From an uncultured Clostridium sp. (lineage in GTDB: Bacteria > Bacillota > Clostridia > TANB77 > CAG-508): DNA of 62,765 nt. Every line of letters begins with the position of its first letter. Position 1 is the first letter of the stretch. Location: assembly GCA_946545015.1 (NCBI GenBank), contig CAMNMV010000002.1, positions 1-62,765 on the forward strand, in the 5' to 3' direction. The position numbers and the translations under genes were made by a program. Shown here piece after piece: positions 3,567 to 54,462 of the stretch. Below the pieces are notes generated by a model. That model did not search any database. It saw nothing but the letters and a program-made list of their open reading frames with translations, and was not told where the DNA came from.

Positions 3567-3629
3567 AGTTATTATCCTATTACTAAATATAAATTAATTA
3601 TAATTTATTAACTAATATTTAAATTATAA

Positions 3630-4880
3630 TTATTGTAATTTTTTACCACATTCTGTGCAGAATTTTGCACCAGGTGTTAATTTTGTTCCACATTCTGGAC
3701 AGAATTTAGGTCCTTCTGAAACTGGAGCTTCAGCTTCTGCATTTTCTACTGGAGCTTCAGTTGGAGTTTCTGTGTTTTCTACTGGTGTTTCAGCTGGTGC
3801 TGGTTCTTCAGCAGGAGCAGGTTCTTGATTAGCTACTGGGCTAACTGGTTGTTGTGGCATTACTGTATTTTCATTTACTCTAGAGTTTGCAAGACCATCT
3901 TGTGAAAAAGCGTTGTTAGTTGTACCTTGCATAGCTCCTCCTACAGCTCCACCTGTTGACATATTCATCATACCAAGTCCCATGAACCCATTCATAGCTC
4001 CATTTGCATTACCTGCAGCTGTCTCCATAACATCAATAATACGACCTTGTTGCATGTAAGCATTTGAGTTGTGTTCGTATTCTGTAATTTTCTTTTCTGA
4101 TGCTTCATCAAGAGAAACTCCTTCAACAGTAAATCCTGTTAATTGAAGACCTCTTCTTCTGATTGGTTCATCAAATGTTGAATTAGCCATCATTTCTTTA
4201 ATTTCATCTGTTTGGCTAGGTAATTCCATAGCTGGTATTTGATGTTTTTCTGTTCCTAATTGATTTAATAAGTTTTGGAAAGCATCTAATACTTCTGATA
4301 ACATTTGTTCTAATAATGTATCTTTTCTGTATACATCTGCAATTCCTGCAATTTCATTCATAAATACTGCTGGGTTTTCCAATTTGAAAGTATATTTACC
4401 AAAGCATTTGATTTTTAAACTAAGTGGTATTAATTTACCTGTCATTTGATTTGGGATAGCATGTGCCCAATCTTGGAATAAAACTGGTGTTTTTGTTCCA
4501 AAGTTATTATTAATTATTTCTTTAGTATTGAAATAGAATACTGCTTGTTGTTTTGCAGATGCGCCATTGTATGTAAATCTTTGCCACATTTCTTTGAATA
4601 CTGCACCAAATTGTCCAGCAAAGAAAGATGGTGATGAAGAAGAATCAAATGTATAAATACCTTCTTCTGCTGATGCATCTAAAACTCTACCGTTATCATA
4701 GATGATAGCACATTGTCCAGGACCTACTATAATTGTACTTTTATTTGTAATAACTCCTGTTGGAGTTGTAACTTTTTTCATAAGAATATCATTTCCTAAA
4801 TCTTCGCATCTAATGGCTTCTTTCCATTGATCTTTGAAAGTGCTTCCGATAGCACCTGCTGCTGCTCTAATTAATCCCAT
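3630..4880 (-). CDS. SPFH/band-7-like (virion-core-protein-like, YdjI-type) protein with Pro/Glu-rich linker and C-terminal zinc ribbon
   Basis: N-terminus MGLIRAAAGAIGSTFKDQWKE, a PAPAEEPAPAETPVEN linker, and C-terminal CPECGTKLTPGAKFCTECG. Confidence 0.65.
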   Translation of the reverse strand: MGLIRAAAGAIGSTFKDQWKEAIRCEDLGNDILMKKVTTPTGVITNKSTIIVGPGQCAIIYDNGRVLDASAEEGIYTFDSSSSPSFFAGQFGAVFKEMWQRFTYNGASAKQQAVFYFNTKEIINNNFGTKTPVLFQDWAHAIPNQMTGKLIPLSLKIKCFGKYTFKLENPAVFMNEIAGIADVYRKDTLLEQMLSEVLDAFQNLLNQLGTEKHQIPAMELPSQTDEIKEMMANSTFDEPIRRRGLQLTGFTVEGVSLDEASEKKITEYEHNSNAYMQQGRIIDVMETAAGNANGAMNGFMGLGMMNMSTGGAVGGAMQGTTNNAFSQDGLANSRVNENTVMPQQPVSPVANQEPAPAEEPAPAETPVENTETPTEAPVENAEAEAPVSEGPKFCPECGTKLTPGAKFCTECGKKLQ

Positions 4881-4938
4881 AATTTTTCATTCCTTACTTT
4901 ATATATTTAGATTTTGAGAAAATCTATAAAACCATTTT

Positions 4939-5829
4939 TTAATATGATGCTCTTTCTAAGTTTGATAAGCACCAATTGTATTCTCCAGTTGTGATAACAC
5001 TTCCACAATAATCACATTTTCCTGCTGAAGTAATTAAAGTTGGAGCACCACAATTTGGACAATTTGTTGTATTAACCCTAGTTGTACCAGGTTTTGTTTT
5101 AACACCTAATTTTCTTTCAAAAGTTAAAAGATAAGAGTTTGTTCTTTCAATTTTAGGGTCGCCCTGTATAACTTTCTTAGTTTCAGCATTAATTATATAA
5201 TCTTGCATTCTAGAGTTTAATTTGATAACAAGAATTTCTTTATCACCAGAAACTCTATAATCATACAAGTTTGCATAGTTAACACAAATTCTATCCATTA
5301 CATTAATAGTTCCATTATCAATATAACCTTGTAATTGATTTTTGTGTTGTTCAAATAATGTGTTTGTTTCGAATACTCTTATTTCTGACCAATCACGTTT
5401 TGACCAAGCTTGTTGTAGACGAACAAATAAATCTTTTGACCAAGCAATAATTTCTTCTTTATTAAATAATTCGTCATGAGCTTGGATTTCTGACACGATT
5501 TGATCTTCTGTTTTTCTTGATGTAGACGCATTTGGATTTGGAGTAAATGTAGATTGATTTCCGCCATTGCTTCTTCTATATATTTCATATATAACTGCAA
5601 TTATTATAAATATAATAATACCAGTTGGACTAGTAAATAAGAAGAAAGATCCTCCACCACCAGAACCTGAATAAGAAGAGCCACTATGACTGCTAGATCT
5701 ACCACTGCTATAAGATTCGAAACTACCAACATCAGCAAAACTTATATTAGAAAGTAATATTAAGCAAGCTAAAATAATAATTGCAAAAACTATTATTTTC
5801 TTTAATCTGTTGTTAGTTTTCAAATTCAT
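4939..5829 (-). CDS. Membrane protein with Tim44-like domain and C-terminal zinc ribbon
   Basis: Signal/TM segment, a Gly/Ser-rich segment, a second TM, then a Tim44-like region (WSEIRVFETNTLFEQHKNQL) and CPNCGAP...CDYCGS. The ATG at 5829 follows a ggagat SD. Confidence 0.5.
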   Translation of the reverse strand: MNLKTNNRLKKIIVFAIIILACLILLSNISFADVGSFESYSSGRSSSHSGSSYSGSGGGGSFFLFTSPTGIIIFIIIAVIYEIYRRSNGGNQSTFTPNPNASTSRKTEDQIVSEIQAHDELFNKEEIIAWSKDLFVRLQQAWSKRDWSEIRVFETNTLFEQHKNQLQGYIDNGTINVMDRICVNYANLYDYRVSGDKEILVIKLNSRMQDYIINAETKKVIQGDPKIERTNSYLLTFERKLGVKTKPGTTRVNTTNCPNCGAPTLITSAGKCDYCGSVITTGEYNWCLSNLERASY

Positions 5830-5962
5830 TATATATCTCCTTTCACATAAGATTATATGTATTTTGTCGCTTATTGTCAATAGAAAATAGTTACATAAAG
5901 TTTAAAAAAAGTAAAAGTGGAAATACTTCATGTATAAATATATTAAGAAAGGAAGATGATTT

Positions 5963-6151
5963 ATGACAAATTTAAATCAATTAGAACTTCAACATTTAAG
6001 ACATTTAATTGGAGCGCATGAAACAGCATATCAAAAATTAAATACTTATTCTGCTCAAGCTGTTGATCCACAAATTAAACAAATATTTACTAAATCAGCA
6101 CAAGATGCATTGAACACAAAACAAAAATTAATGAGTTTTTTAAATAATTAA
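5963..6151 (+). CDS. Small spore coat protein, CotF-family-like
   Basis: LELQHLRHLIGAHETAYQKLNTYS pattern; paired with a second CotF-like gene. Confidence 0.6.
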   Translation: MTNLNQLELQHLRHLIGAHETAYQKLNTYSAQAVDPQIKQIFTKSAQDALNTKQKLMSFLNN

Positions 6152-6191
6152 ATCAATTATTTATTTTAAATTTTATTTAGGAGGAAAAAAT

Positions 6192-6437
6192 ATGGATGAA
6201 AAAGTAATGGTTAATGATATATTAGCAGGAGTCAAATCAGATTTAACTGCATATCAGACAGCAATAACTGAATGTGAAAATATTGGACTTAGACAAACAT
6301 TACAACAAATAAGAAATAGTGATGAGAGTTTCCAATATGAACTTTTTAAAGTAGCTATGACAAAAGGATATTATAAACCAGCGGCTAAAGCAACTACAAC
6401 AGAAGTGGATGATGTGAAGAATCAAGTTCAAGGCTAG
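6192..6437 (+). CDS. Spore coat protein, Coat F domain-like
   Basis: NDILAGVKSDLTAYQTAITECENIGLRQTLQQIRN...LFKVAMTKGYY matches the Coat F pattern. Confidence 0.7.
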   Translation: MDEKVMVNDILAGVKSDLTAYQTAITECENIGLRQTLQQIRNSDESFQYELFKVAMTKGYYKPAAKATTTEVDDVKNQVQG

Positions 6438-6450
6438 TAAAAATCAATCA

Positions 6451-6523
6451 AAATAAGGTGTATTTAATTTTCCTAAAGCGGGAAAAGGCTAAATAATTAG
6501 CTTTCAAATACATCTTATTTTTT
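6451..6523 (+). terminator. Branched (three-way junction) hairpin ending in a T-run
   Basis: A 15-bp outer stem (6451-6465 with 6506-6520, one G-U) encloses two inner hairpins, ttttcc/ggaaaa and gctaa/ttagc. It is followed by tttttt. Confidence 0.55.
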
Positions 6524-6756
6524 ATTAAAAAACAAATACAAAAACATAAGAAAAAATGTAAAAAAAAGAGAAAAAAAGAAAAAAAGAGTGAAAATAGACT
6601 TTGGTAAGTTTAGTAACATATTGCAAAAAAATAAATGTTACAATATTATTACAATAATGACATAGAAATGTAATAATTTTCTTATTGAGTTAGTATTAGC
6701 CGTAAGAAAAAATACATAATCCAAAGAATAAATATATAAAAAACAAGGAGTAATAT

Positions 6757-16276: not shown

Positions 16277-19200
16277 ATGGAAGGAAAATTATTACGAAAA
16301 CTAATTGCGTTTGTTTTAATACTATGTTTAACAGCAACTAATTTTATTTTTGCTGCAGTAAACACAGTATATGCTATAAGCGCATCATCAGAACTTGAAG
16401 GAGGAAATATTGTTTTTGAAGCATATTTTAAACAAGACGAAACAAAAGTTATAGACAAAACAGCATATGTTTCAGAAGGAGCTGATTTATATATCAACTT
16501 AGCAATCAAAGCTGGTAAATTACAAAATGCTAGTATAAAGATTGACAATGCCAATTTCAAGATAGAAAAAGATAAAGTTGATAGCAAATATGTTAAGGGT
16601 ATTAACACAGATACAAATGAAATTTTATTGAATGAAATAGGATATAGTGATGGACAAGCTGGAAGTGTAGAGATAAAACTACCAGTTAAATTTGAGGAGG
16701 CACAAAGAATTGACCTTTCTTATTTCTCAATGGAAAATAGTATAACCCTTTCAGGACATTATATAAATTCCTCTGAAAACGGAAAAGATATTAAAAGTGA
16801 TCCTATAAAAACAAGATTAACATGGAGTGAAAGTAGTATAAGTTACAATTGGGTTCCTACTGTAGAAAAAATAGTTTCTGCTGATAACAAAACTATTGTA
16901 CAAGTAAGCATAAATTCTATTTTAGATAAATTATACTTACCAAAAGAATCTGAAACTGTAACAATAAATGTTCCAAAAGTAGGAAATGTAACACCAAGCT
17001 ATACAGTATTAGTAAATGGAGAAAAATTAGATATTAGTAAAATAAATGATGATTTTGCAAATCAAAAAATATCATTTACAAATAATTTCGTAGATGGTAA
17101 TAGTATTTTATGGGATAAATCAGGAGATACATATAAAGTGATTTATGTATATGATAATACTGATTATTTAGAAAAACCATTAGAATTTAAAACACAAGTA
17201 ACAACAAAAGTATATAATAGAGAGGCAAAAACAAGTAATGAAATGAAAATGGCTTCAAATAAGCCACAAGGAACTATAGCATCAGTTACAGCTACTTCAT
17301 TATCAAATGAAGTATATAAAGGTTATATGTATGCTAATTCAGCAGAAACATTATATACAGAAAAATATGATTTAGAATTATCATATACAGATACAGTTGC
17401 AACATTTAAATTTGCTGAAGATAATTTTACAACTGAATCTCAAGAAAGAAAAATAACAAATGGAAAAACAGTTTATAAAGAATTAAAAATTAATAAAGCA
17501 AATTTAGTAAATGTATTAGGAACAACAGGAAGTTTAAAAATTGTAGATAAAAATATAATTGTAAATTCAAATACACAAGCTGATAAAGATGGAAATATCG
17601 TTATTAAAACAGATGATGCACATATTTTAAAATTAGACTTAATATCAGCTGAAAATGAAGGAACGATTAAAATATTTGCAACAAAAGCAATTCAAGGAAA
17701 TGCAGGTTATGATAAAGAAACATTAAAATCGATAAATGCCATAGAAACAACAGTAAAGGCATCTACAGATTTAGATCAAGAAGTTTCTACAGCAACAGCT
17801 AGAACAGAATTAAAAGAAACAACAACTGAAGCAACATTAGTTATGAATAATAACAATATATTATCAACAACAACAGCAAATGACATTGAATTTTTAGCAA
17901 CATTAAAAACAGGTACTATGGATACAGACTTGCTTAAAGCACCAACATTAAAATTAATATTACCTGAAGATGTAGATCAAGTTACAATTAAATCAGTTTC
18001 AGCATTATATGCAGAAGAAAAATTAAATGTAGCAGATCAACAAGTTGTTGAAGAAGAAGGAAGAAAAGTAATATTAGTAAAATTAGATGGTGAACAATTA
18101 AGTTATGACAACAAATTTATTGAAGGTATTAAAGTTACAATTAATACAGAAATAACATTAAAAGAAGGAACAACATCTAAAGATGATGTTATTACAATGA
18201 AATATACAAACGAGAATAGCACAGAAAAAGAATTTGAAACACCTATAAAAGTATCAATTCAAGCACCATATGGATTAATGACAACAGCTACAGCAAATGC
18301 TGAATTTGAAGGAAAAACTGCAGATGAAACAATTTCAGCACAAGCTATAAACAATTATGGTAAAGTAATAGAAAATTTATCATTTATTGGAAATATGCCA
18401 ACTGTAGAAAAATCTAAAGAAGATTTTGAAAATTCAATTAAAGATAGCTTTAAAGCAACAATTGGAGAAACAGTAGTTGATGCAAATTCTATAACAATAA
18501 AATATTCTAAAGATGGAAAAGAATGGACAGATGATATAGAAGATGCAAAACAATATAAAATAGTACTTGGTGAAAATACAAAATTAAATGCAACAGAAAA
18601 ATTTGAAGTTGCTTATACAATAGAAGTATCACAAGTAATAACAGGACATAAAATAGCTTATACACTTGATGGTATGGAAAAAGTTGATGAATTAAAAGAA
18701 AAAGTAACTGTAAAAGGATTAGAAATACCAGATTCTGAACCAGATCCAGACCCAACACCAGTAGAACCAGTAGTAAATGAAGATGGACTTTCAGTTACAA
18801 TGACAGCAGCATCAGCAAATAAAACAATTACCAAAGATGATGAATTAACAGCTGGTCAAGTAATAAGATATTCATATGTAATTAAAAATACTTCAGAAAA
18901 TGCAATTGAAAATGTAAAATTTGAAGCAGAACATACAAATACAAATGTATTTGAATATAAAACAGATAAACAAACAAATACAATAAAACCAGATGAAGAA
19001 ATTAGCTTTACATTTGAAAAAGAAGCAGATGGAAAATCAACTGTTGAAAAACAAATTGGAACTTTAGAAGCAGGAAAAGAAATAAAACTTACATATCAAG
19101 CAAGAGTTAAAGAAAATGCAAATAAAGTTGAATCAACAGTAGTAGTTACAGGAAAAGATGTAGAAGAAATCAAAATAGAATCTGCAAACGACGTAAAATC

Positions 19201-25840: not shown

Positions 25841-25854
25841 CTTAGGGAAACAAG
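25841..25854 (+). promoter_or_regulatory. CTTAGGGAAATAAG motif copy (one mismatch)
   Basis: Reads cttagggaaacaag, directly after the module 1 terminator. Confidence 0.5.
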
Positions 25855-25919: not shown

Positions 25920-25944
25920 AAATTTAAAGTATAGTTAGTAAAAA

Positions 25945-25986
25945 GTGTTTCAAATACTTTCCGTAAAGGTATTTGGGACACTTTTT
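25945..25986 (+). promoter_or_regulatory. Leader hairpin presenting TTCCGTAAAG in its loop, followed by T5
   Basis: gtgtttcaaatac / gtatttgggacac 13-bp stem (two G-U pairs) with an 11-nt loop tttccgtaaag, followed by ttttt. Confidence 0.45.
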
Positions 25987-26093: not shown

Positions 26094-29000
26094 ATGAAAG
26101 GGAAAATTTTAAAAGTATTATTGGTGTTAATGATTATTGCAAGTATGACATTAATCAATTTTTTACACACAGGAATGTTAATTGCATATGCTGCAGGGGA
26201 AAATGCTGAAGAAAATTCAGTAGAATTTAATGCAACAATAAATACTGAAAATGATTATGAAGGAAAATTAAATATTGGTCAAACAGGAAATCTTTATATT
26301 AACTTAAAAGTTAGTAAAGGTTCATTAAATGATGCTAAAATACAGTTGAAAAACTCAAACTTCAAGATGGGAAAAGCAGATAGTAAATATGTAACTGTAA
26401 ATGACAGTACAAAAACTATTGAATTTAATGCAAATGTCCAATATGGAAATAATATAAAAGTTAAAGTTCCAATTACTTTTGAACAACAATCAATGATTGA
26501 TGAAAATTATTTTAATAGAGATACAACAGTTGAATTAGCTGGTACATATGTAGAAGGCGAGAACAGTTCAAATCTAAATATACAAAAAAACATTAAATTA
26601 GGTTGGGAAGCCAAAGCTGAAACAACTTTATCCACACAAATTGAAAAATATGTGGAAATCAGTGAAGGAAAATACTTAATTGAGCAAAAAGTAACAGCTA
26701 CAACTGTAAATAATATTTTACCAAAACAATCTGAAAAAGTTGAAATAACATATGGTGGAGAAAATGATAAATTTCCAAGTGAAATTGTAGTTTTGAAAAA
26801 TGGAAAAAAATTAGATGGAAGTAAAGTAACAAAGGATGAAACAAATAGAAAAATAGTAATAACAACAATGAATGATGTATCTACAGGAAAAGTATTATGG
26901 GATGAAGGAAAAGATATATACAAAGTGATTTATATACTTGAAGAAGAACAACCAAAAACAAGTATTTTATTAAATACTTTAGTTAGCACAAAATTTTATA
27001 ATAGCGAAGAATTAGTAGAAAAAGCAGATAATAAAAATGATAAAGCACAAGAATTAAGAATAAAAGGAGAAATAATAACAACAGAAGCTGAAGGAACAAA
27101 AGAACAATATAAAGGTTATATGTATTATGCAAAAGCCAATGAAACATTATATAGCCAAAAATATAGCATTGAAGTTTCAAATGTTGCAAATGAACAAGTA
27201 ATAAACTTTGAACAAAATGGTGAAGATTTTATTAGAGGAGACGGTAAAAAGCTAGAAACAAATAATTCTACATATTTCAAAAATATATCATTAAGCAAAG
27301 AAAATATAAATAATGTTTTAGGAAATAATGGACACATTGATTTAATATGTGATGGAGTAACATATAGAATTAATGCTAATCAAGAAGCAAATGAAAATGG
27401 ATATATCGTATTTGGAATAGATGAAAATAATTCTAGATTTAGTGAATTAAAATTAACGACAAGTAAAGTAATCAATGAAGGTGTACTAGATATATTAGTT
27501 GATAAAGTAGTAGCTGGAAATACTTCATATAGCAAAGAAGAATTAAAACAAATTGCTAAAATCGAAACAAATGTAAAAGTGCAAGATCAAGAAGTAAGAA
27601 CACAAACACAATTGTTAGATACAGTAGAACCATCTGCTAAATTAACAATTGAAAATGATGTAATTTCCACAATTAATCAAGAAAATAATAATGTAAAAAT
27701 GTATGTAACATTAAATACTTCTTCAAACAAATATGATTTATACAAAAATCCACAAATAGTAGTAACATTACCAAGAGAAGTAGAAGAATTTAATTTTGTG
27801 CATAATGAATTATATGCAGAAGGATTTAGATTAACAAATGAACCTAAATTACAAGTAAATGCTGATGGAACAAAATGTATAATGTTTACTTTTGAGGGTG
27901 AACAAGCAAACTATGGAAACAATGCAGTTGAAGGATTAGTAATTGAAATAAGTGGTAATATTAGACTAAATAAATTGACTCCAAAAATGACTAAACAAAT
28001 TAGTATGACATATTCAAACGAAAATAAAAATTACCAAACATATGAGAAAAAAGCAGATATAAAAATTGTTTCAAAAGAAGGAATATTAACATATACACAA
28101 GTAAAAGGTTATAACGAAGCTGGAGAGACTATTGAAACAATGAGTAATGAACTAGCTGAAGGTACTCTTGATATGGATGCTGAATCTAGAAATGTAAGAG
28201 TAAATATGGCAGTTATAAATAATTACGACAAAAATGTAACTAATGCATTTATATTAGGAAAATTAAAAACAACATATGAAGGAGAAATAACTTCTCCTAT
28301 ACAAATAAGTGGTTTAGAAGGTGCAAAAGTACTTTATAGTACAAATGTTGAAGAAGAAGTAAATAGTAAAAATTGGACAGAAAATTACGAAGGTGCTAAA
28401 GCTTATAAAATTATACTTCCAAATGGACAATTAAAAAGTGGACAAATTATGGGATTTGCTTATAACTTTAATGTGCCAGAAAACTTAGAATATAACGAAA
28501 TAGCAAATGCGGGATATCAATTTAATTATAAATATGATGATATAAATAATAAAATTTCTTCAGTATTCAAATTAGCAACAGAAGAAAAGACATTAACAAA
28601 TCAATTAAAAAGAATAGCAAGAAATAGTAATAAAACATCTAATATTTATAGTGTTAGTGAAGGGGTAAAATTAGATGTTAAAGCTATATCTGCATTAAAT
28701 GAATTAAATGATGGTGATACAGTAAAAGAAGGACAAACAATTAGATATGAAGTTACAGTTAAAAACAATTCACAAGAAGATATTGAAAACTTAAAATTAA
28801 CAGCAAGACATACAAATGCGATATTCTTTGTTGAAAAGAAAGAAGAAAATGTATTTGGCGTAACAAATGGTATACCATATAATACATATATTGATGAAGA
28901 TGAATCAGTAGAAAAATTAGAATTTGAATTAGAAAGATTAGGTGCAGGAGAAGAAAAAACATTTGAATATGAATTTTCTGTAAAAGAAATAGAAGGAGAA

Positions 29001-38321: not shown

Positions 38322-38335
38322 CTTAGGGAAATAAG
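38322..38335 (+). promoter_or_regulatory. CTTAGGGAAATAAG motif copy (exact)
   Basis: Exact 14-mer abutting the T-run of the module 2 terminator. Confidence 0.5.
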
Positions 38336-47981: not shown

Positions 47982-48026
47982 AACTAGAACTAAATGTGAT
48001 ATAACACAGTTAGTTCTAGTTTTTTA
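47982..48026 (+). terminator. Rho-independent terminator of module 3
   Basis: aactagaacta / tagttctagtt 11-bp stem with an 18-nt loop, followed by ttttt. Confidence 0.75.
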
Positions 48027-48087
48027 TTATGACAAATTATAAAAAAGGCAAAAGATAATAAAAAAATAAATTTAGGAGGAAAAAGAA

Positions 48088-48852
48088 ATGTTTAATCTTG
48101 TTAAAGATGAATTTGAAGAAAATGCAGATGATATATTAGCTTCAATTAATAAAATGTTAAATAGTAAAGAAGAAAAAAAAGGAAAATTGTTTGTAATAGA
48201 TGGAACTGATGGAAGCGGAAAACAAACACAATTTAAGAAATTACAAGAAAGATTAGATGCAGAAAATATTGAATATAGAGTTGTAAGCTTTCCAAATTAT
48301 GATAGCCCAAGTTCATCATTAGTAAAAATGTATTTATCAGGTGAATTTGGCAAAAATGCCAAAGATGTTAGCCCATATATAGCATCTACATTTTATGCGG
48401 CAGATAGATATGCAACATTTAAAACGGGATATCAAGAATATTATGATAATGGTGGAATTATATTAGCAGACAGATATACAACTGCAAATATGGTGCATCA
48501 AGCAGGAAAAATATCAGATGAAGAAGAAAGACAAAAGTTTTTAGATTGGTTATGGGAATTTGAATTTAATTTATATGGATTACCTGTTCCAACAGAAGTA
48601 TTCTTCCTAAATATGCCAGTTGAAAAATCATTAGAATTAATTAAAGATAGAGATAATAAATTTACAAATCAAGCACAAAAAGATATACATGAAAGTGATA
48701 AAAATCATTTGATTGATGCTCATGCTGCAGCTTGTTATGTTGCAAAAAAATATGATTGGTATGAAATTAATTGTGTAGATGAAAAAGACAATATAAGAAC
48801 AATAGAAGATATACATGAACAAATATATAATGAAATAATAAAAAATATTTAG
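48088..48852 (+). CDS. Thymidylate kinase family protein (long form)
   Basis: P-loop FVIDGTDGSGKQTQ and DRYTTANMVHQ. It is longer than a canonical Tmk because of an N-terminal extension. Confidence 0.65.
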   Translation: MFNLVKDEFEENADDILASINKMLNSKEEKKGKLFVIDGTDGSGKQTQFKKLQERLDAENIEYRVVSFPNYDSPSSSLVKMYLSGEFGKNAKDVSPYIASTFYAADRYATFKTGYQEYYDNGGIILADRYTTANMVHQAGKISDEEERQKFLDWLWEFEFNLYGLPVPTEVFFLNMPVEKSLELIKDRDNKFTNQAQKDIHESDKNHLIDAHAAACYVAKKYDWYEINCVDEKDNIRTIEDIHEQIYNEIIKNI

Positions 48853-48864
48853 AATCAATATAAA

Positions 48865-48878
48865 CTTAGGGAAATAAG
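48865..48878 (+). promoter_or_regulatory. CTTAGGGAAATAAG motif copy (exact)
   Basis: Exact 14-mer ending 16 nt upstream of the -35 hexamer of the ncRNA promoter. Confidence 0.5.
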
Positions 48879-48894
48879 GAATATATAAATTTGA

Positions 48895-48923
48895 TTGACC
48901 TAAAAAAATAAATATGTTATAAT
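48895..48923 (+). promoter_or_regulatory. Consensus sigma-A promoter of the large ncRNA
   Basis: TTGACC, 17 nt, TATAAT with an extended -10 (TGtTATAAT). Confidence 0.7.
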
Positions 48924-48929
48924 ACATCT

Positions 48930-49510
48930 GATGGTGCATTATTCTAGTCATACACAACCTTACGAGGGTGGGGCTAAAAATCCACTAAAGGGCACATCGT
49001 TGAAGTTTCTTAGTGTTGCGCGAAATGCCAGTTTTGTGTGGCTCTAGGGAGTAAAGAGGTTAGGGTAGTATGTAATGGCATATGTATGAACCCCTGGCTT
49101 CGCGGAGGCTTAAAAATGAATTTTTAAGTAAAACCTATGTTGAGTGCCAAGACACAATAAACATAGTGTAGCCTGTCTCGAGTGAGTGTATTGGGATTAG
49201 TCTAATATATATTAGAAATGATTTAGGCCAAATTGTACTAATATTGGCTATGAAATTGCACTTGCAAAAAAGACTAGTAAGGTTTTAATAGTATGTTAAG
49301 GAAAACTTCTAGAATGTTTGCAAAGTAATTTGCAAGGGAGTCTAGGGATTAAGGTACGGATTTTAGTGGCGATCTGGTGTTTACTTAAGTACAAGTAAAT
49401 ATTTTCCTCAAACGGAAACGGCTCTAGCAGTAATGCTAAGCGGAAAATAGAGAAATTCAACTAGACCTAAACCGTAAAATTTACTTAGACTTCTACCATC
49501 TAAGTTTTTT
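48930..49510 (+). ncRNA. Large (~580 nt) structured non-coding RNA, candidate OLE-class RNA
   Basis: A 760-bp gap with no credible ORF and G+C clearly above the flanks. It has its own promoter and terminator (acttaga / tctaagt stem plus tttttt at 49483-49510). Several local helices are present, two of them capped by GUAA tetraloops (49318-49335 ttgcaaa-gtaa-tttgcaa, and tagca-gtaa-tgcta near 49425). A small four-TM protein gene lies immediately downstream. Confidence 0.55.
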
Positions 49511-49615
49511 ATACATAATTAAATATAATAACTTAATAACTATAAAAAACGTAAGAAATAGATATAAAAGAAAAACAAAAATAAATAAAATATAATTAAT
49601 TACAAAGGGAGAATT

Positions 49616-50164
49616 ATGAAAAAAGATCAGAAAGAACACTCGAATATTAAATGGTTTATAGAAGTTTTTATATTAACTTTTATACTGTCTATAGTGTTTT
49701 CATATATTTCTACAAATGGTGTAGCAGGATTAAGTTTAGTTCCTGCAATATTAATATTAATATTAGTAATATTTGTAGGGATATTTTTTGACGTTATAGC
49801 AGTTGCAGTTACTGTAGCAAATGAAGAAGAATTTCATGCTAAAGCAACTAAAAAAGTCGAAGGATCCAAAAGTTCTATAAAATTAATAAGAAATGCACCT
49901 AGAGTAGCTAATATATGTGCAGATGTTATAGGCGACATTTGTGGAGTATTAAGTGGAGCAATTAGTGCATTGATAGCAGTAAAGATTACTGAACAATTCG
50001 GATTATCATTTAATTTACAATTTATATTAAGTGCAATAGTTGCAGCATTAACAGTTGGAGGAAAAGCAATAGGTAAAGAAATCGCAAATAAGAAATCAAC
50101 GCCAATAGTACATGCTGTTGGAAAAATATTAAATAAATTCAAAAAAAGGGAGGAAACCATATGA
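49616..50164 (+). CDS. Small four-TM membrane protein, candidate OLE-associated protein OapA
   Basis: 182 aa (about 20 kDa) with four predicted TM helices, some carrying Asp residues (FFDVIAVAV, CADVIGDICG). It lies directly 3' of the large ncRNA. Confidence 0.45.
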   Translation: MKKDQKEHSNIKWFIEVFILTFILSIVFSYISTNGVAGLSLVPAILILILVIFVGIFFDVIAVAVTVANEEEFHAKATKKVEGSKSSIKLIRNAPRVANICADVIGDICGVLSGAISALIAVKITEQFGLSFNLQFILSAIVAALTVGGKAIGKEIANKKSTPIVHAVGKILNKFKKREETI

Positions 50165-51687
50165 GTAGAAGCAAAGGAAGAAGATATGAACAAGAACCAA
50201 AACTAAATTTGAAAAAAGTATTTGCAGTATTAATGGCAGTTGCAGTAGTAGTTATGTTTGTGTTCATAATTAATGGAATTCTATCAAAAGGTGAAAACAA
50301 AGGAAAAGTAGTAAACCAAAGTTATTTTACAGTATTTAAAGATAATAAATGGGGAGTGATAGATTCTAATGGTGAAACTATAATTGATCCTTCTTATGAG
50401 GAAATGATTGTAATCCCAAATATAAATAGAGATGTATTTATTTGCACTTATGATGTAAATTATGATACAGGTGATTATAAAACAAAAGTATTAAATGCTA
50501 AAAATGAACAAATTTTTAAAGATTATGAAAAAGTAGAAGCAATACAAAATAGTAATACAGCCAATAGTTTGTGGTATGAAAATAATGTATTAAAAATATC
50601 AAAAAATGGAAAATTTGGATTAATAAATCTTGATGGAAAAGAAGTTCTAAGTGCAGAATACGATGAAATAACAACAATTAGTGGAATTTCAAATGCATTA
50701 AAAACAAAAAAAGACAATAAATATGGAATTGTAACAGATGAAGGAAGAGTAATTGTTGAAAATAAATATGCAGATATTACAAACTTAGGTAAAGATGATA
50801 AAGCAGGATTTATAGTAAAAAATGAAGAGGGAAAACTTGGAGTAGTAAATCATTCTGGAGAACAAGCATTAGAAACTAAATATGAAGCAATAGAAAACGT
50901 TTTTGGAAATGATATGTATGTTATCAAAGAAGCTAATGCACAAAAATTAATTAGCAAAGATGGAACTGTAATTTTAGCAGAAGGATTTGATAAAATATCA
51001 AGTATATTAAAAAATAAAGATGAAGGTATAGTATTTGAAAAAGCTGGAAAATTAGGAGTAATGAAATTAACAGGAGAAGTAACAATTCCTGCTGAATATG
51101 AAGATATTAAAGAAGCAAAAGAAGGCATACTAATTGCTAAAAAAGAAGGAAAATATGGAATAATAGATTTAACAAATACAGCAAAAATAGAATTTAAATA
51201 CTTACTTATAACATATGTTGAAAGTGCAGATATATATATATTAGAAGATGCTGATGCAACATCAACAATATTAGATAGTACTTTAGAAGTTAAATTAACA
51301 GGAATATTAAATGAACTAAATGAAGATAAAGGATATTTAAAAATAAGAGTTGCTGATGACTATAAATATTACAACTTCAAATTTGAAGAAAAACAAGCTA
51401 AAGATATTTTAACAACAAATACATTATTTTTAAGTAAAAAAGACGGAAAATATGGTTATGTTGATAAAGATGGTAAAGTAGTTGTAGATTACATTTATGA
51501 TGATGCAAAAGAACAAAATTCATGTGGATTTGTAGCTGTAAAAAAAGACGGAAAATGGGGAGCTCTAAATAATAAAGGAAATGTAGTTGTTGATACAATT
51601 TACAATTTAGATAATTATTTAGAAGTTGATTTCATAGGAAGATGGCATTTAGGTCAAGATAGGAATTTAAACTATTATATTCAATAA
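50161..51687 (+). CDS. WG-repeat (KWG-like) protein with N-terminal membrane anchor
   Basis: Reiterated units such as KWGVIDSNGETIIDPSYEEM, GKFGLINLDGKEVLSAEYDEI, NKYGIVTDEGRVIVENKYADI, GKYGYVDKDGKVVVDYIYDDA and GKWGALNNKGNVVVDTIY. An ATGA overlap joins it to the upstream gene. Confidence 0.65.
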   Translation: MSRSKGRRYEQEPKLNLKKVFAVLMAVAVVVMFVFIINGILSKGENKGKVVNQSYFTVFKDNKWGVIDSNGETIIDPSYEEMIVIPNINRDVFICTYDVNYDTGDYKTKVLNAKNEQIFKDYEKVEAIQNSNTANSLWYENNVLKISKNGKFGLINLDGKEVLSAEYDEITTISGISNALKTKKDNKYGIVTDEGRVIVENKYADITNLGKDDKAGFIVKNEEGKLGVVNHSGEQALETKYEAIENVFGNDMYVIKEANAQKLISKDGTVILAEGFDKISSILKNKDEGIVFEKAGKLGVMKLTGEVTIPAEYEDIKEAKEGILIAKKEGKYGIIDLTNTAKIEFKYLLITYVESADIYILEDADATSTILDSTLEVKLTGILNELNEDKGYLKIRVADDYKYYNFKFEEKQAKDILTTNTLFLSKKDGKYGYVDKDGKVVVDYIYDDAKEQNSCGFVAVKKDGKWGALNNKGNVVVDTIYNLDNYLEVDFIGRWHLGQDRNLNYYIQ

Positions 51688-51713
51688 TTTTCGTAGGAAG
51701 GATATAGTAATAG

Positions 51714-52943
51714 ATGGAACTAAAGATAAACTATCAATATACATATTTTATACATCCTTTTATAGTAAAGGAACAAAGGTATCAAAAATATTTATTGAAA
51801 ATGTTAAAAGATAAAAATAGTAGATTAAAAATATTCAAAAAAGAAAGAGATTTAAATTTATATAAATATTTCTTACCTGAAATTAGAGAATTCTTATTTT
51901 CTAGTTTTGACTTTACAAGTAATAAATTAAAAAGTTTAGAGACTTTACCAGTAGATACTCAAAGTGCAATACTTGCAAAATATCCTTGTACAATGTTTGA
52001 ATATAATTTGGAAAATGACATACAGGGAAAAACAGGTGAAGAAAAAGGAATATTTTTCAACATTAATAAGATCGAAATAATTTGCTTTAATACAGGAATA
52101 TGCTTTTTATGCATTAAAACTAATGTAGAAAATACTAATAGATTTGATGATGTATTGAATTTTAATTATAAATTTAGAGATATAAATCAAGAATTTAAAA
52201 CAAAACAATATGACAAAATTAAAATTCAAACAAGTGCATATGATGATATGAAAAGTTTTACAGATTTGATAAAAGATATAACAGGTGCAAATATGGATGC
52301 TGCAAGATATGATGTGGATGGTGAAAGATTTTTAACATATTCATATGCATGCATAGAACAAGATTATTGGAATGAATTTAGAAAATTTGAAAATATTGAA
52401 CATAATTTTATAAAGTTTGCTAATATACTTCCAGCAGATAATATAGCAAATTTCATAAAAGATGAATCAGTTTCAATTTCTGAATGGAAATATGCAAAAA
52501 TTGGATTAACGAAACAAGGTATAACACTATTTGCTTCGGCTACAGAAATGAATAATTTTTCAATATTTCCAGAAGAATTTGAAAATCAATATTTTTACAC
52601 ATATATATTAAATTTATATAAAAAGATTTATTTAAATAAATTAAATGTAGAGTTTAGTAATACAAAGAATATCAGAGCAATAAGAAAAAAATTCATAGAA
52701 TTCACTAAAAAAGTTTGGATTCAAGAAATAACAGGAGACGAAGCTGGAACAATTATTAATCATAGATTAAATGATGTACTTGAATTAGAAACTTTATATC
52801 TATATACAAAAAATAAATATGATGTTTTATATAAAGATTTAAATATAGAGAAAAACACAAAAATAACAATAGTATTAGCTTTAACATTATTGGCAACAGT
52901 AATAATGAATATAGTTAATTTTTGGCAGATGAGCAAAAAATAA
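51714..52943 (+). CDS. Hypothetical protein with a single C-terminal TM helix
   Basis: 409-aa ORF with native codon usage and a C-terminal ITIVLALTLLATVIMNIVNFW. I recognise no family. Confidence 0.5.
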   Translation: MELKINYQYTYFIHPFIVKEQRYQKYLLKMLKDKNSRLKIFKKERDLNLYKYFLPEIREFLFSSFDFTSNKLKSLETLPVDTQSAILAKYPCTMFEYNLENDIQGKTGEEKGIFFNINKIEIICFNTGICFLCIKTNVENTNRFDDVLNFNYKFRDINQEFKTKQYDKIKIQTSAYDDMKSFTDLIKDITGANMDAARYDVDGERFLTYSYACIEQDYWNEFRKFENIEHNFIKFANILPADNIANFIKDESVSISEWKYAKIGLTKQGITLFASATEMNNFSIFPEEFENQYFYTYILNLYKKIYLNKLNVEFSNTKNIRAIRKKFIEFTKKVWIQEITGDEAGTIINHRLNDVLELETLYLYTKNKYDVLYKDLNIEKNTKITIVLALTLLATVIMNIVNFWQMSKK

Positions 52944-54448: not shown

Positions 54449-54462
54449 CTTAGGGAAATAAG
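54449..54462 (+). promoter_or_regulatory. CTTAGGGAAATAAG motif copy (exact)
   Basis: Exact 14-mer ending 22 nt upstream of the -35 of the G5-protein promoter. A degenerate copy (tctagggaataaat) lies at 54337-54350. Confidence 0.5.

Follow-up and report, generated by a model that had tools for sequence, protein, structure and literature searches.

The intergenic region at positions 48853–49615 of contig CAMNMV010000002.1 (uncultured Clostridium sp., assembly GCA_946545015.1; positions 1 to 62,765 were analyzed and are called the window) encodes an OLE RNA with the consensus fold of its family. The gene directly downstream codes for a protein of 182 aa that is, as far as the sequence can establish, OapA. 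We are highly confident that the two form an ole-oapA unit. An earlier inspection of the letters without database searches (the sequence-only reading) had put the locus forward as a candidate of this kind and had left the RNA class unverified. The features of the unit are as follows.

48895–48923, + strand: ole promoter, sigma-70-type with extended -10 box (TTGACC, 17 nt, TGtTATAAT); predicted start at about 48930
48915–49515, + strand: OLE RNA gene (match to Rfam RF01071); likely transcript from about 48930 to about 49510
49381–49400, + strand: P13 hairpin of the RNA; 7-bp stem UUUACUU/AAGUAAA with the hexaloop AAGUAC, no GNRA tetraloop and no bulge
49484–49510, + strand: weak hairpin (CTTAGA 49484–49489, 9-nt loop, TCTAAG 49499–49504) followed by T6 (49505–49510)
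49616–50164, + strand: oapA, 182 aa, predicted CNNM-like membrane protein with four transmembrane (TM) helices; starts 100 nt after the end of the Rfam match

The match to RF01071 covers model positions 1–616 of 616, is not truncated and scores 359.2 bits (E = 6.4e-102), compared with a gathering score of 50 bits. The whole window was scanned against 4227 Rfam families, and RF01071 is the sole family above threshold anywhere in it; the models of ROOL, GOLLD, HEARO and raiA did not reach threshold. The covariance-model search thus confirms the proposed OLE assignment. Projection of the Rfam model structure onto the window copy yields canonical pairs at 138 of the 148 consensus positions. The five local helices that had been picked out by eye (cttaaaaa/tttttaag, ctatgtt/aacatag, ttgcaaa/tttgcaa, tttactt/aagtaaa, which is P13, and tagca-GUAA-tgcta) are all located within the OLE consensus structure, and the size of ~580 nt estimated at that time fits a transcript from ~48930 to ~49510.

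The gap between the upstream kinase-like gene and the open reading frame (ORF) at 49616 comprises 763 bp. As the sequence-only reading had noted, it holds no credible ORF and is enriched in G+C. The only ORFs are on the minus strand (one of 54 aa, one of 48 aa and the end of a third, of 106 aa, which extends into the kinase gene). The G+C content of 48930–49510 is 37.0%, compared with a mean of 27.2% for the window (s.d. 3.1%, segments of equal size), and just 0.4% of the equally sized segments attain this value. The sole other stretch that matches the OLE gene in this respect is 3600–4300 (up to 39.8% in 581-nt segments). It lies inside the minus-strand gene 3630–4880, which codes for an SPFH/Band-7 plus zinc-ribbon protein.

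The downstream protein was used to fetch 80 related loci from species-representative genomes, all of them metagenome-assembled genomes (MAGs) of uncultured gut Clostridium or Clostridia. The nearest relatives, e.g. Clostridium sp. CAG:440, agree with the Bacillota hosts, anaerobes or extremophiles, known for OLE. An OLE RNA is located directly upstream of the homologue in 78 of the 80 loci (nhmmer); the contigs of the remaining two have their start at oapA. All 17 loci that were scanned with Rfam have a full-length OLE match (321–365 bits) in this position. The same arrangement extends to distant relatives of the protein (~40% identity), with an OLE RNA of 209–474 bits directly upstream in 20 of 20 loci, including RNAs of the full-length type (468–474 bits).

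Fifty RNAs from related loci were aligned for covariation analysis. With the projected structure 89.0% of the cells are paired, a value that drops to 32–50% when the 3' partners are slid by one to three columns. Furthermore, 63 pairs vary on both sides. Shuffled alignments reach 41 on average and none of 500 attains 63. The pairing and the covariation among relatives demonstrate that the RNA is genuine, that it is structured and that selection acts on it in this clade.

Published accounts define OapA by its position after ole, by four TM helices with a basic cluster and by a DxxxD motif that is lacking in CNNM domains (PMC11332333, PMC12265935). The window protein has four hydrophobic segments (residues ~13–33, 38–68, 100–122 and 128–150 by hydropathy), in agreement with the four-TM topology assigned to it earlier, and its 182 aa fit the size of ~20 kDa known for OapA. 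The motif is present as DVIGD (residues 103–107) inside the third segment. Together with an aspartate of TM2 it is invariant in 41 close homologues and in 14 homologues of 33–45% identity. The loop between TM2 and TM3 (residues 76–96) is basic, with K76, K79, K80, K85, K89, R92 and R96, and K76, K79 and K85 are invariant in the close homologues. At an E-value of 1e-10 or better the family comprises 806 clusters (50% identity). Its members have ~170–210 aa and include proteins of Halanaerobiales and Oscillospiraceae, and the identity to members of other orders is ~33–45%. The adjacency of the homologues to OLE RNAs ties the family to OLE in close and distant lineages alike, and the oapA-like assignment of the sequence-only reading is upheld.

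The similarity to CNNM proteins is weak. CNNM is the sole Pfam match (20.6 bits) and stays below its cut-off of 28.4 bits; neither a CBS nor a CorC domain is found by Pfam in the 182-aa protein. No NCBIfam model matches this protein, the WG-repeat protein encoded next to it or the 409-aa protein that follows. The AlphaFold model is all-helical and of moderate confidence (pLDDT 66.6, pTM 0.48). Its top three Foldseek matches in the PDB are MtCorB entries (7m1t, 7m1u; E = 9.7e-3 to 0.37, TMq ~0.37), which we regard as supporting only. A sequence search of the PDB with the protein returned only insignificant matches to membrane proteins, e.g. LolE and LptF. To our knowledge no structure of an OapA has been deposited. 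The weak CNNM/CorB signal agrees with that of the published Halalkalibacterium halodurans OapA: OapA has been described as weakly homologous to the CNNM/DUF21 domain of MpfA-type Mg2+ transporters, and its structure as closest to that of CorB (7M1U; PMC11332333, PMC12265935).

The protein thus resembles known OapA in its four TM helices, the DxxxD motif in the third of these, the basic TM2–TM3 loop, the weak CNNM/DUF21 similarity and the position directly after ole. It differs in being translationally coupled to a WG-repeat gene, a trait not known from the family. With the CNNM Mg2+ transporters of the MpfA/CorB/CorC type it shares a similar TM fold (MtCorB being the best PDB match) and the sub-threshold Pfam signal, but it has no CBS pair and no CorC/HlyC domain and, unlike CNNM domains according to the literature, contains the DxxxD motif. 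Membership in that transporter family was considered and rejected on the grounds of its length, the sub-threshold CNNM match and the missing CBS and CorC domains.

The promoter of the unit is well defined. The boxes TTGACC (48895–48900) and TATAAT (48918–48923), with the extending TG at 48915–48916, match the consensus in 11 of 12 positions and constitute the best promoter-like site in 48000–52000. Among 49 aligned relatives the -10 box is located at a fixed distance of 6–7 nt from the invariant GATGGTGCA. The near-perfect promoter described by the sequence-only reading is confirmed, and because of the fixed distance transcription probably starts at ~48930, which by its position is the first conserved OLE nucleotide.

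The 3' end is less clear-cut. The hairpin with T6 is present where the sequence-only reading had placed a terminator, but it is weak. Its energy alone is -3.0 kcal/mol, and a terminator scan of 48000–52000 called none, as the hairpin is too A+T-rich for the G-C criterion. Furthermore, the T-run is not conserved among relatives and the 5' arm also pairs with 49341–49346, forming the conserved long-range helix 15 of OLE. The element is thus a candidate for either a leaky terminator or the 3' end of the RNA. The spacer between OLE and oapA (100 nt, 13% G+C) contains no promoter-like site on the + strand. Because the hairpin is weak, its 5' arm is part of an OLE helix and the spacer is promoterless, partial read-through from the ole promoter into oapA is likely. 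Several relatives (L014, L063, L069 and L074) possess, just past OLE and ahead of oapA, a terminator-like hairpin rich in G+C, e.g. GGCAGA...TCTGCC, in place of the A+T-rich one of the window. The transcriptional coupling of ole and oapA may therefore differ among species.

In the arrangement that we propose, the sigma-70-type promoter just upstream would drive the OLE RNA and then the OapA-family gene. Some transcripts would probably continue into oapA and the overlapping WG-repeat gene, yielding much RNA and less mRNA. By analogy to other species, OapA would bind the OLE RNA and hold it at the cell membrane.

Such co-transcription raises the question whether the RNA is mainly a cis-acting 5' leader that controls oapA and not an independent RNA. 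The weak 3' hairpin and the promoterless spacer speak for this view, as oapA is probably co-transcribed with ole. However, in many relatives a strong terminator hairpin, rich in G+C, is located between OLE and oapA, OLE RNA accumulates as a stable RNA and binds OapA in trans (PMC12265935), and co-transcription is compatible with a role in trans. We regard a leader function as very unlikely.

Within the family, the RNA of the ole-oapA unit fits the published variant 1 form, judged by its sequence. OLE RNAs have been grouped by score into full-length RNAs (at least 390 bits), variant 1 (310–390 bits) and variant 2 (Fernando and Breaker 2024, PMC11332333). Variant 1 typically occurs in reduced gut Clostridia of the TANB77 clade. 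Its P7–P9 are shorter, the OapB site at the tip of P13 is often absent and its host organisms largely do without OapB and OapC (PMC11332333). The window RNA (359.2 bits) and the 17 scanned relatives (321–365 bits) are inside the 310–390 band, with the restriction that these scores derive from the Rfam model whereas the band was defined with the authors' own model. The related MAGs presumably belong to TANB77 as well, in keeping with their match to the published description of variant 1; no link between CAG-440 and TANB77 was found in a literature search.

The OapB site consists of a GNRA tetraloop and a one-nucleotide bulge in P13 (PMC7936274). Since the P13 hairpin of the window has neither, the primary OapB site is absent. 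In the distant OLE RNA of locus L084 (474 bits), unlike in the window, P13 carries both the bulge and a GUAA loop. P5 of the window RNA has 8 bp and a 3-nt loop: 27 model positions are reduced to 3 nt and P5.1 is absent. In its alignment to the Rfam consensus, the long hairpin that follows P6 shows single-nucleotide gaps only, and the published P7–P9 numbering is not securely mappable onto it. The k-turn sequence for OapC that flanks P5 (GGAG ... AAACC) is kept. No L7Ae-type Pfam match was found among the scanned ORFs of at least 100 aa in the 63-kb window; smaller ORFs were read by eye only.

Some further observations concern these regions. The tip of P5 is highly variable in the clade (columns 218–276 of alignment A3) and ranges from the 3-nt loop of the window to insertions of 20–56 nt (L001, L011, L025, L063 and others). 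In L078 and L079 the long hairpin that follows P6 is without its distal part. Two small + strand ORFs of the window, 5963–6151 (62 aa) and 6192–6437 (81 aa), are located in the gap 5881–6756. By eye they are not OapB, OapC or bS21.

Like variant 1 RNAs, the window RNA matches the family model from end to end and shares its helices and its highly conserved unpaired stretches. Further points of agreement are the loss of the OapB site at the P13 tip, the position of oapA immediately downstream and the uncultured gut Clostridia as hosts. With the full-length OLE RNAs of H. halodurans, Clostridium botulinum and C. acetobutylicum, the window RNA shares the RNA family, the OapA partner, the order ole-oapA and the OapC k-turn flanks. 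It differs from these in the P13 hexaloop without a bulge, in the absence of P5.1 and in its G+C content of 37%. Its own promoter appears to set the start, so that 5' processing is apparently unnecessary. The neighbors differ as well: the window has dTMP-kinase-like and WG-repeat genes instead of the classical ole-operon genes. Without the primary OapB dock in P13, the RNA would form a reduced variant 1 particle, as in those gut Clostridia that are largely devoid of OapB and OapC.

The reduced form might also be taken for a decaying, non-functional remnant in a reduced genome. Its score of 359 bits is below that of full-length-type RNAs (412–474 bits), the OapB site in P13 and the P5.1 extension are missing, and rare defective ole genes have been published (PMC11332333). 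These published copies, however, occur in organisms without OapA (PMC11332333), whereas here an intact oapA is adjacent. The 138 canonical pairs of 148, the nearly consensus and conserved promoter and the same reduced form with compensatory changes in ~50 species-level relatives argue against decay; purifying selection is evident from the covariation. Accordingly, we consider a remnant highly improbable. The alternative allowed by the sequence-only reading, another large RNA class (ROOL, GOLLD, HEARO, raiA) or a new one whose likeness to OLE is limited to size and context, finds no support in the results and is refuted to a practical certainty by the covariance-model result, with RF01071 alone above its gathering score among the 4227 families over all 616 model positions (E = 6e-102), and by the covariation of the OLE structure in the clade.

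Several points weigh against the assignment as an ole-oapA unit. The classical neighbors in ole operons are isoprenoid, folate, exonuclease VII and recN genes, and none of these is present in the window. The protein model is of mediocre quality (pLDDT 66.6) and resembles CorB only weakly (E = 9.7e-3, TMq 0.37). Membership in OapA is judged from the published features and the adjacency to OLE. Both the read-through and the ends of the transcript are predictions from the sequence. Finally, all functional knowledge derives from a distant alkaliphile.

Three further features flank the unit or overlap it.

48088–48852, + strand: dTMP-kinase-like gene, 254 aa, upstream neighbor of ole (Pfam Thymidylate_kin, 66.8 bits)
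48865–48878, + strand: CTTAGGGAAATAAG motif; ends 16 nt before the ole -35 box, outside the promoter
50161–51687, + strand: gene of a WG-repeat protein, 508 aa, with N-terminal membrane anchor (Pfam WG_beta_rep, 104 bits)

The start codon of the WG-repeat gene (50161–50163) overlaps the stop codon of oapA (50162–50164). The ATGA overlap claimed by the sequence-only reading is real, but it is specific to a lineage and not a conserved part of the OLE system. Among 160 loci (tblastn and repeat pattern) the gene and the overlap are common only to L053, a rabbit-gut MAG and one of the 80 related loci, in which the WG-repeat protein (gene at 4531–6057) is 70% identical. As it is near ole in L053 only, the WG-repeat protein was rejected as a general OLE partner. 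The protein has a single membrane anchor, and according to the positive-inside rule the WG repeats are predicted to be outside the membrane. In the current model based on cryo-EM, domain 2 of OLE is on the outer side of the membrane, the same as the WG repeats. The protein might be a lineage-specific extra component of an OLE particle that has lost its OapB dock; the chance of this is small. The next gene (51714–52943) codes for a 409-aa protein with a C-terminal hydrophobic segment and without a Pfam or NCBIfam match. This protein is kept in L053 (83% identity) and in L079 (52%), where it is located upstream of OLE and not downstream.

The motif CTTAGGGAAATAAG consists of a 4-bp inverted repeat around GGGAAA. 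Exact copies are present at 38322–38335, 48865–48878 and 54449–54462 of the window and a copy with one mismatch at 25841–25854. All of them are on the + strand and intergenic. By chance about one copy would be expected; four or more turn up in 1 of 100 shuffles. The copies at 25841 and 38322 follow terminator hairpins and precede giant surface-protein genes; the copy at 54449 ends 22 nt before a strong sigma-70-like -35 box of a gene for a G5-domain protein. The sequence-only reading had located the motif within the ole promoter and had linked it to the giant surface-protein modules. The motif is real, but it is outside the promoter and is not conserved in the 80 related loci, as no copy is found in their 587 kb. 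A role as a conserved promoter element was rejected for this reason. Readings as alternative-sigma sites (SigF/G, SigH), made by eye, were dropped, since no partner hexamer is common to the four copies.

The kinase gene of L053 runs straight into the OLE -10 box and the spacer with the motif is missing. Thus, the 65-nt spacer that holds CTTAGGGAAATAAG and TTGACC is specific to the window genome. The motif may be a genome-specific regulator site. As a weaker variant of the idea concerning the WG-repeat protein, it could tie ole transcription to the genes of the giant surface proteins and the G5-domain protein in an envelope regulon.

The giant surface proteins are encoded by five tandem genes at 16277–47916 (1597, 1554, 1690, 2375 and 3114 aa). 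The domain scan covered the last one (3114 aa), which contains SdrD_B, CarboxypepD_reg and DUF11 domains and a C-terminal membrane anchor. A long hairpin is located at 25940–25986, ~100 nt upstream of the start of the giant gene at 26094. It has 20 pairs, which is the ceiling of the scan, four of them G-C. It comes after the motif copy at 25841 and may form a 5' leader. The window as a whole is ordinary chromosomal DNA and also carries mreBCD, a PBP2-type transpeptidase, minC, acpS, tatD, rnc and other genes.

The dTMP-kinase-like protein scores below the NCBIfam equivalog cut-offs, and a homologue of at least 200 aa is found upstream of OLE in 33 of the 80 related loci. In most relatives (L001–L080) a short-chain dehydrogenase of ~252 aa follows ~20–400 nt downstream of oapA; the window has no copy of it. 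On the metagenome contig L154 an L31-Firmicutes ribosomal-protein leader (RF03156, 37.8 bits) is located at 2083–2116, just downstream of the oapA homologue.

Among the bacterial non-coding RNAs that still lack a known biochemical function, OLE, a stable RNA of about 600 nt, ranks with the largest and best conserved, and recent cryo-EM work suggests that it may span the membrane. In other species the four-TM, CNNM-like OapA binds the RNA cooperatively and holds it at the membrane, and in H. halodurans the OLE ribonucleoprotein helps the cells adapt to cold, to short-chain alcohols, to an excess of Mg2+ and to poor carbon sources (PMC12265935, PMC11332333, PMC7936274, PMC9723947).

The system has already been described in gut Clostridia and the locus adds nothing categorically new. 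Standard Rfam annotation detects it and its reduced form is published; the main practical lesson is that the genome annotation missed a known RNA gene. The only lead left is the lineage-specific coupling to the WG-repeat membrane protein, to which we assign a low probability. What the locus offers, with modest practical value, is a clean, minimal ole-oapA unit with its own near-consensus promoter, a predicted start at the first conserved nucleotide and no OapB site. The small, AT-rich genome that carries it could lend itself to work on what makes up the minimal OLE particle.

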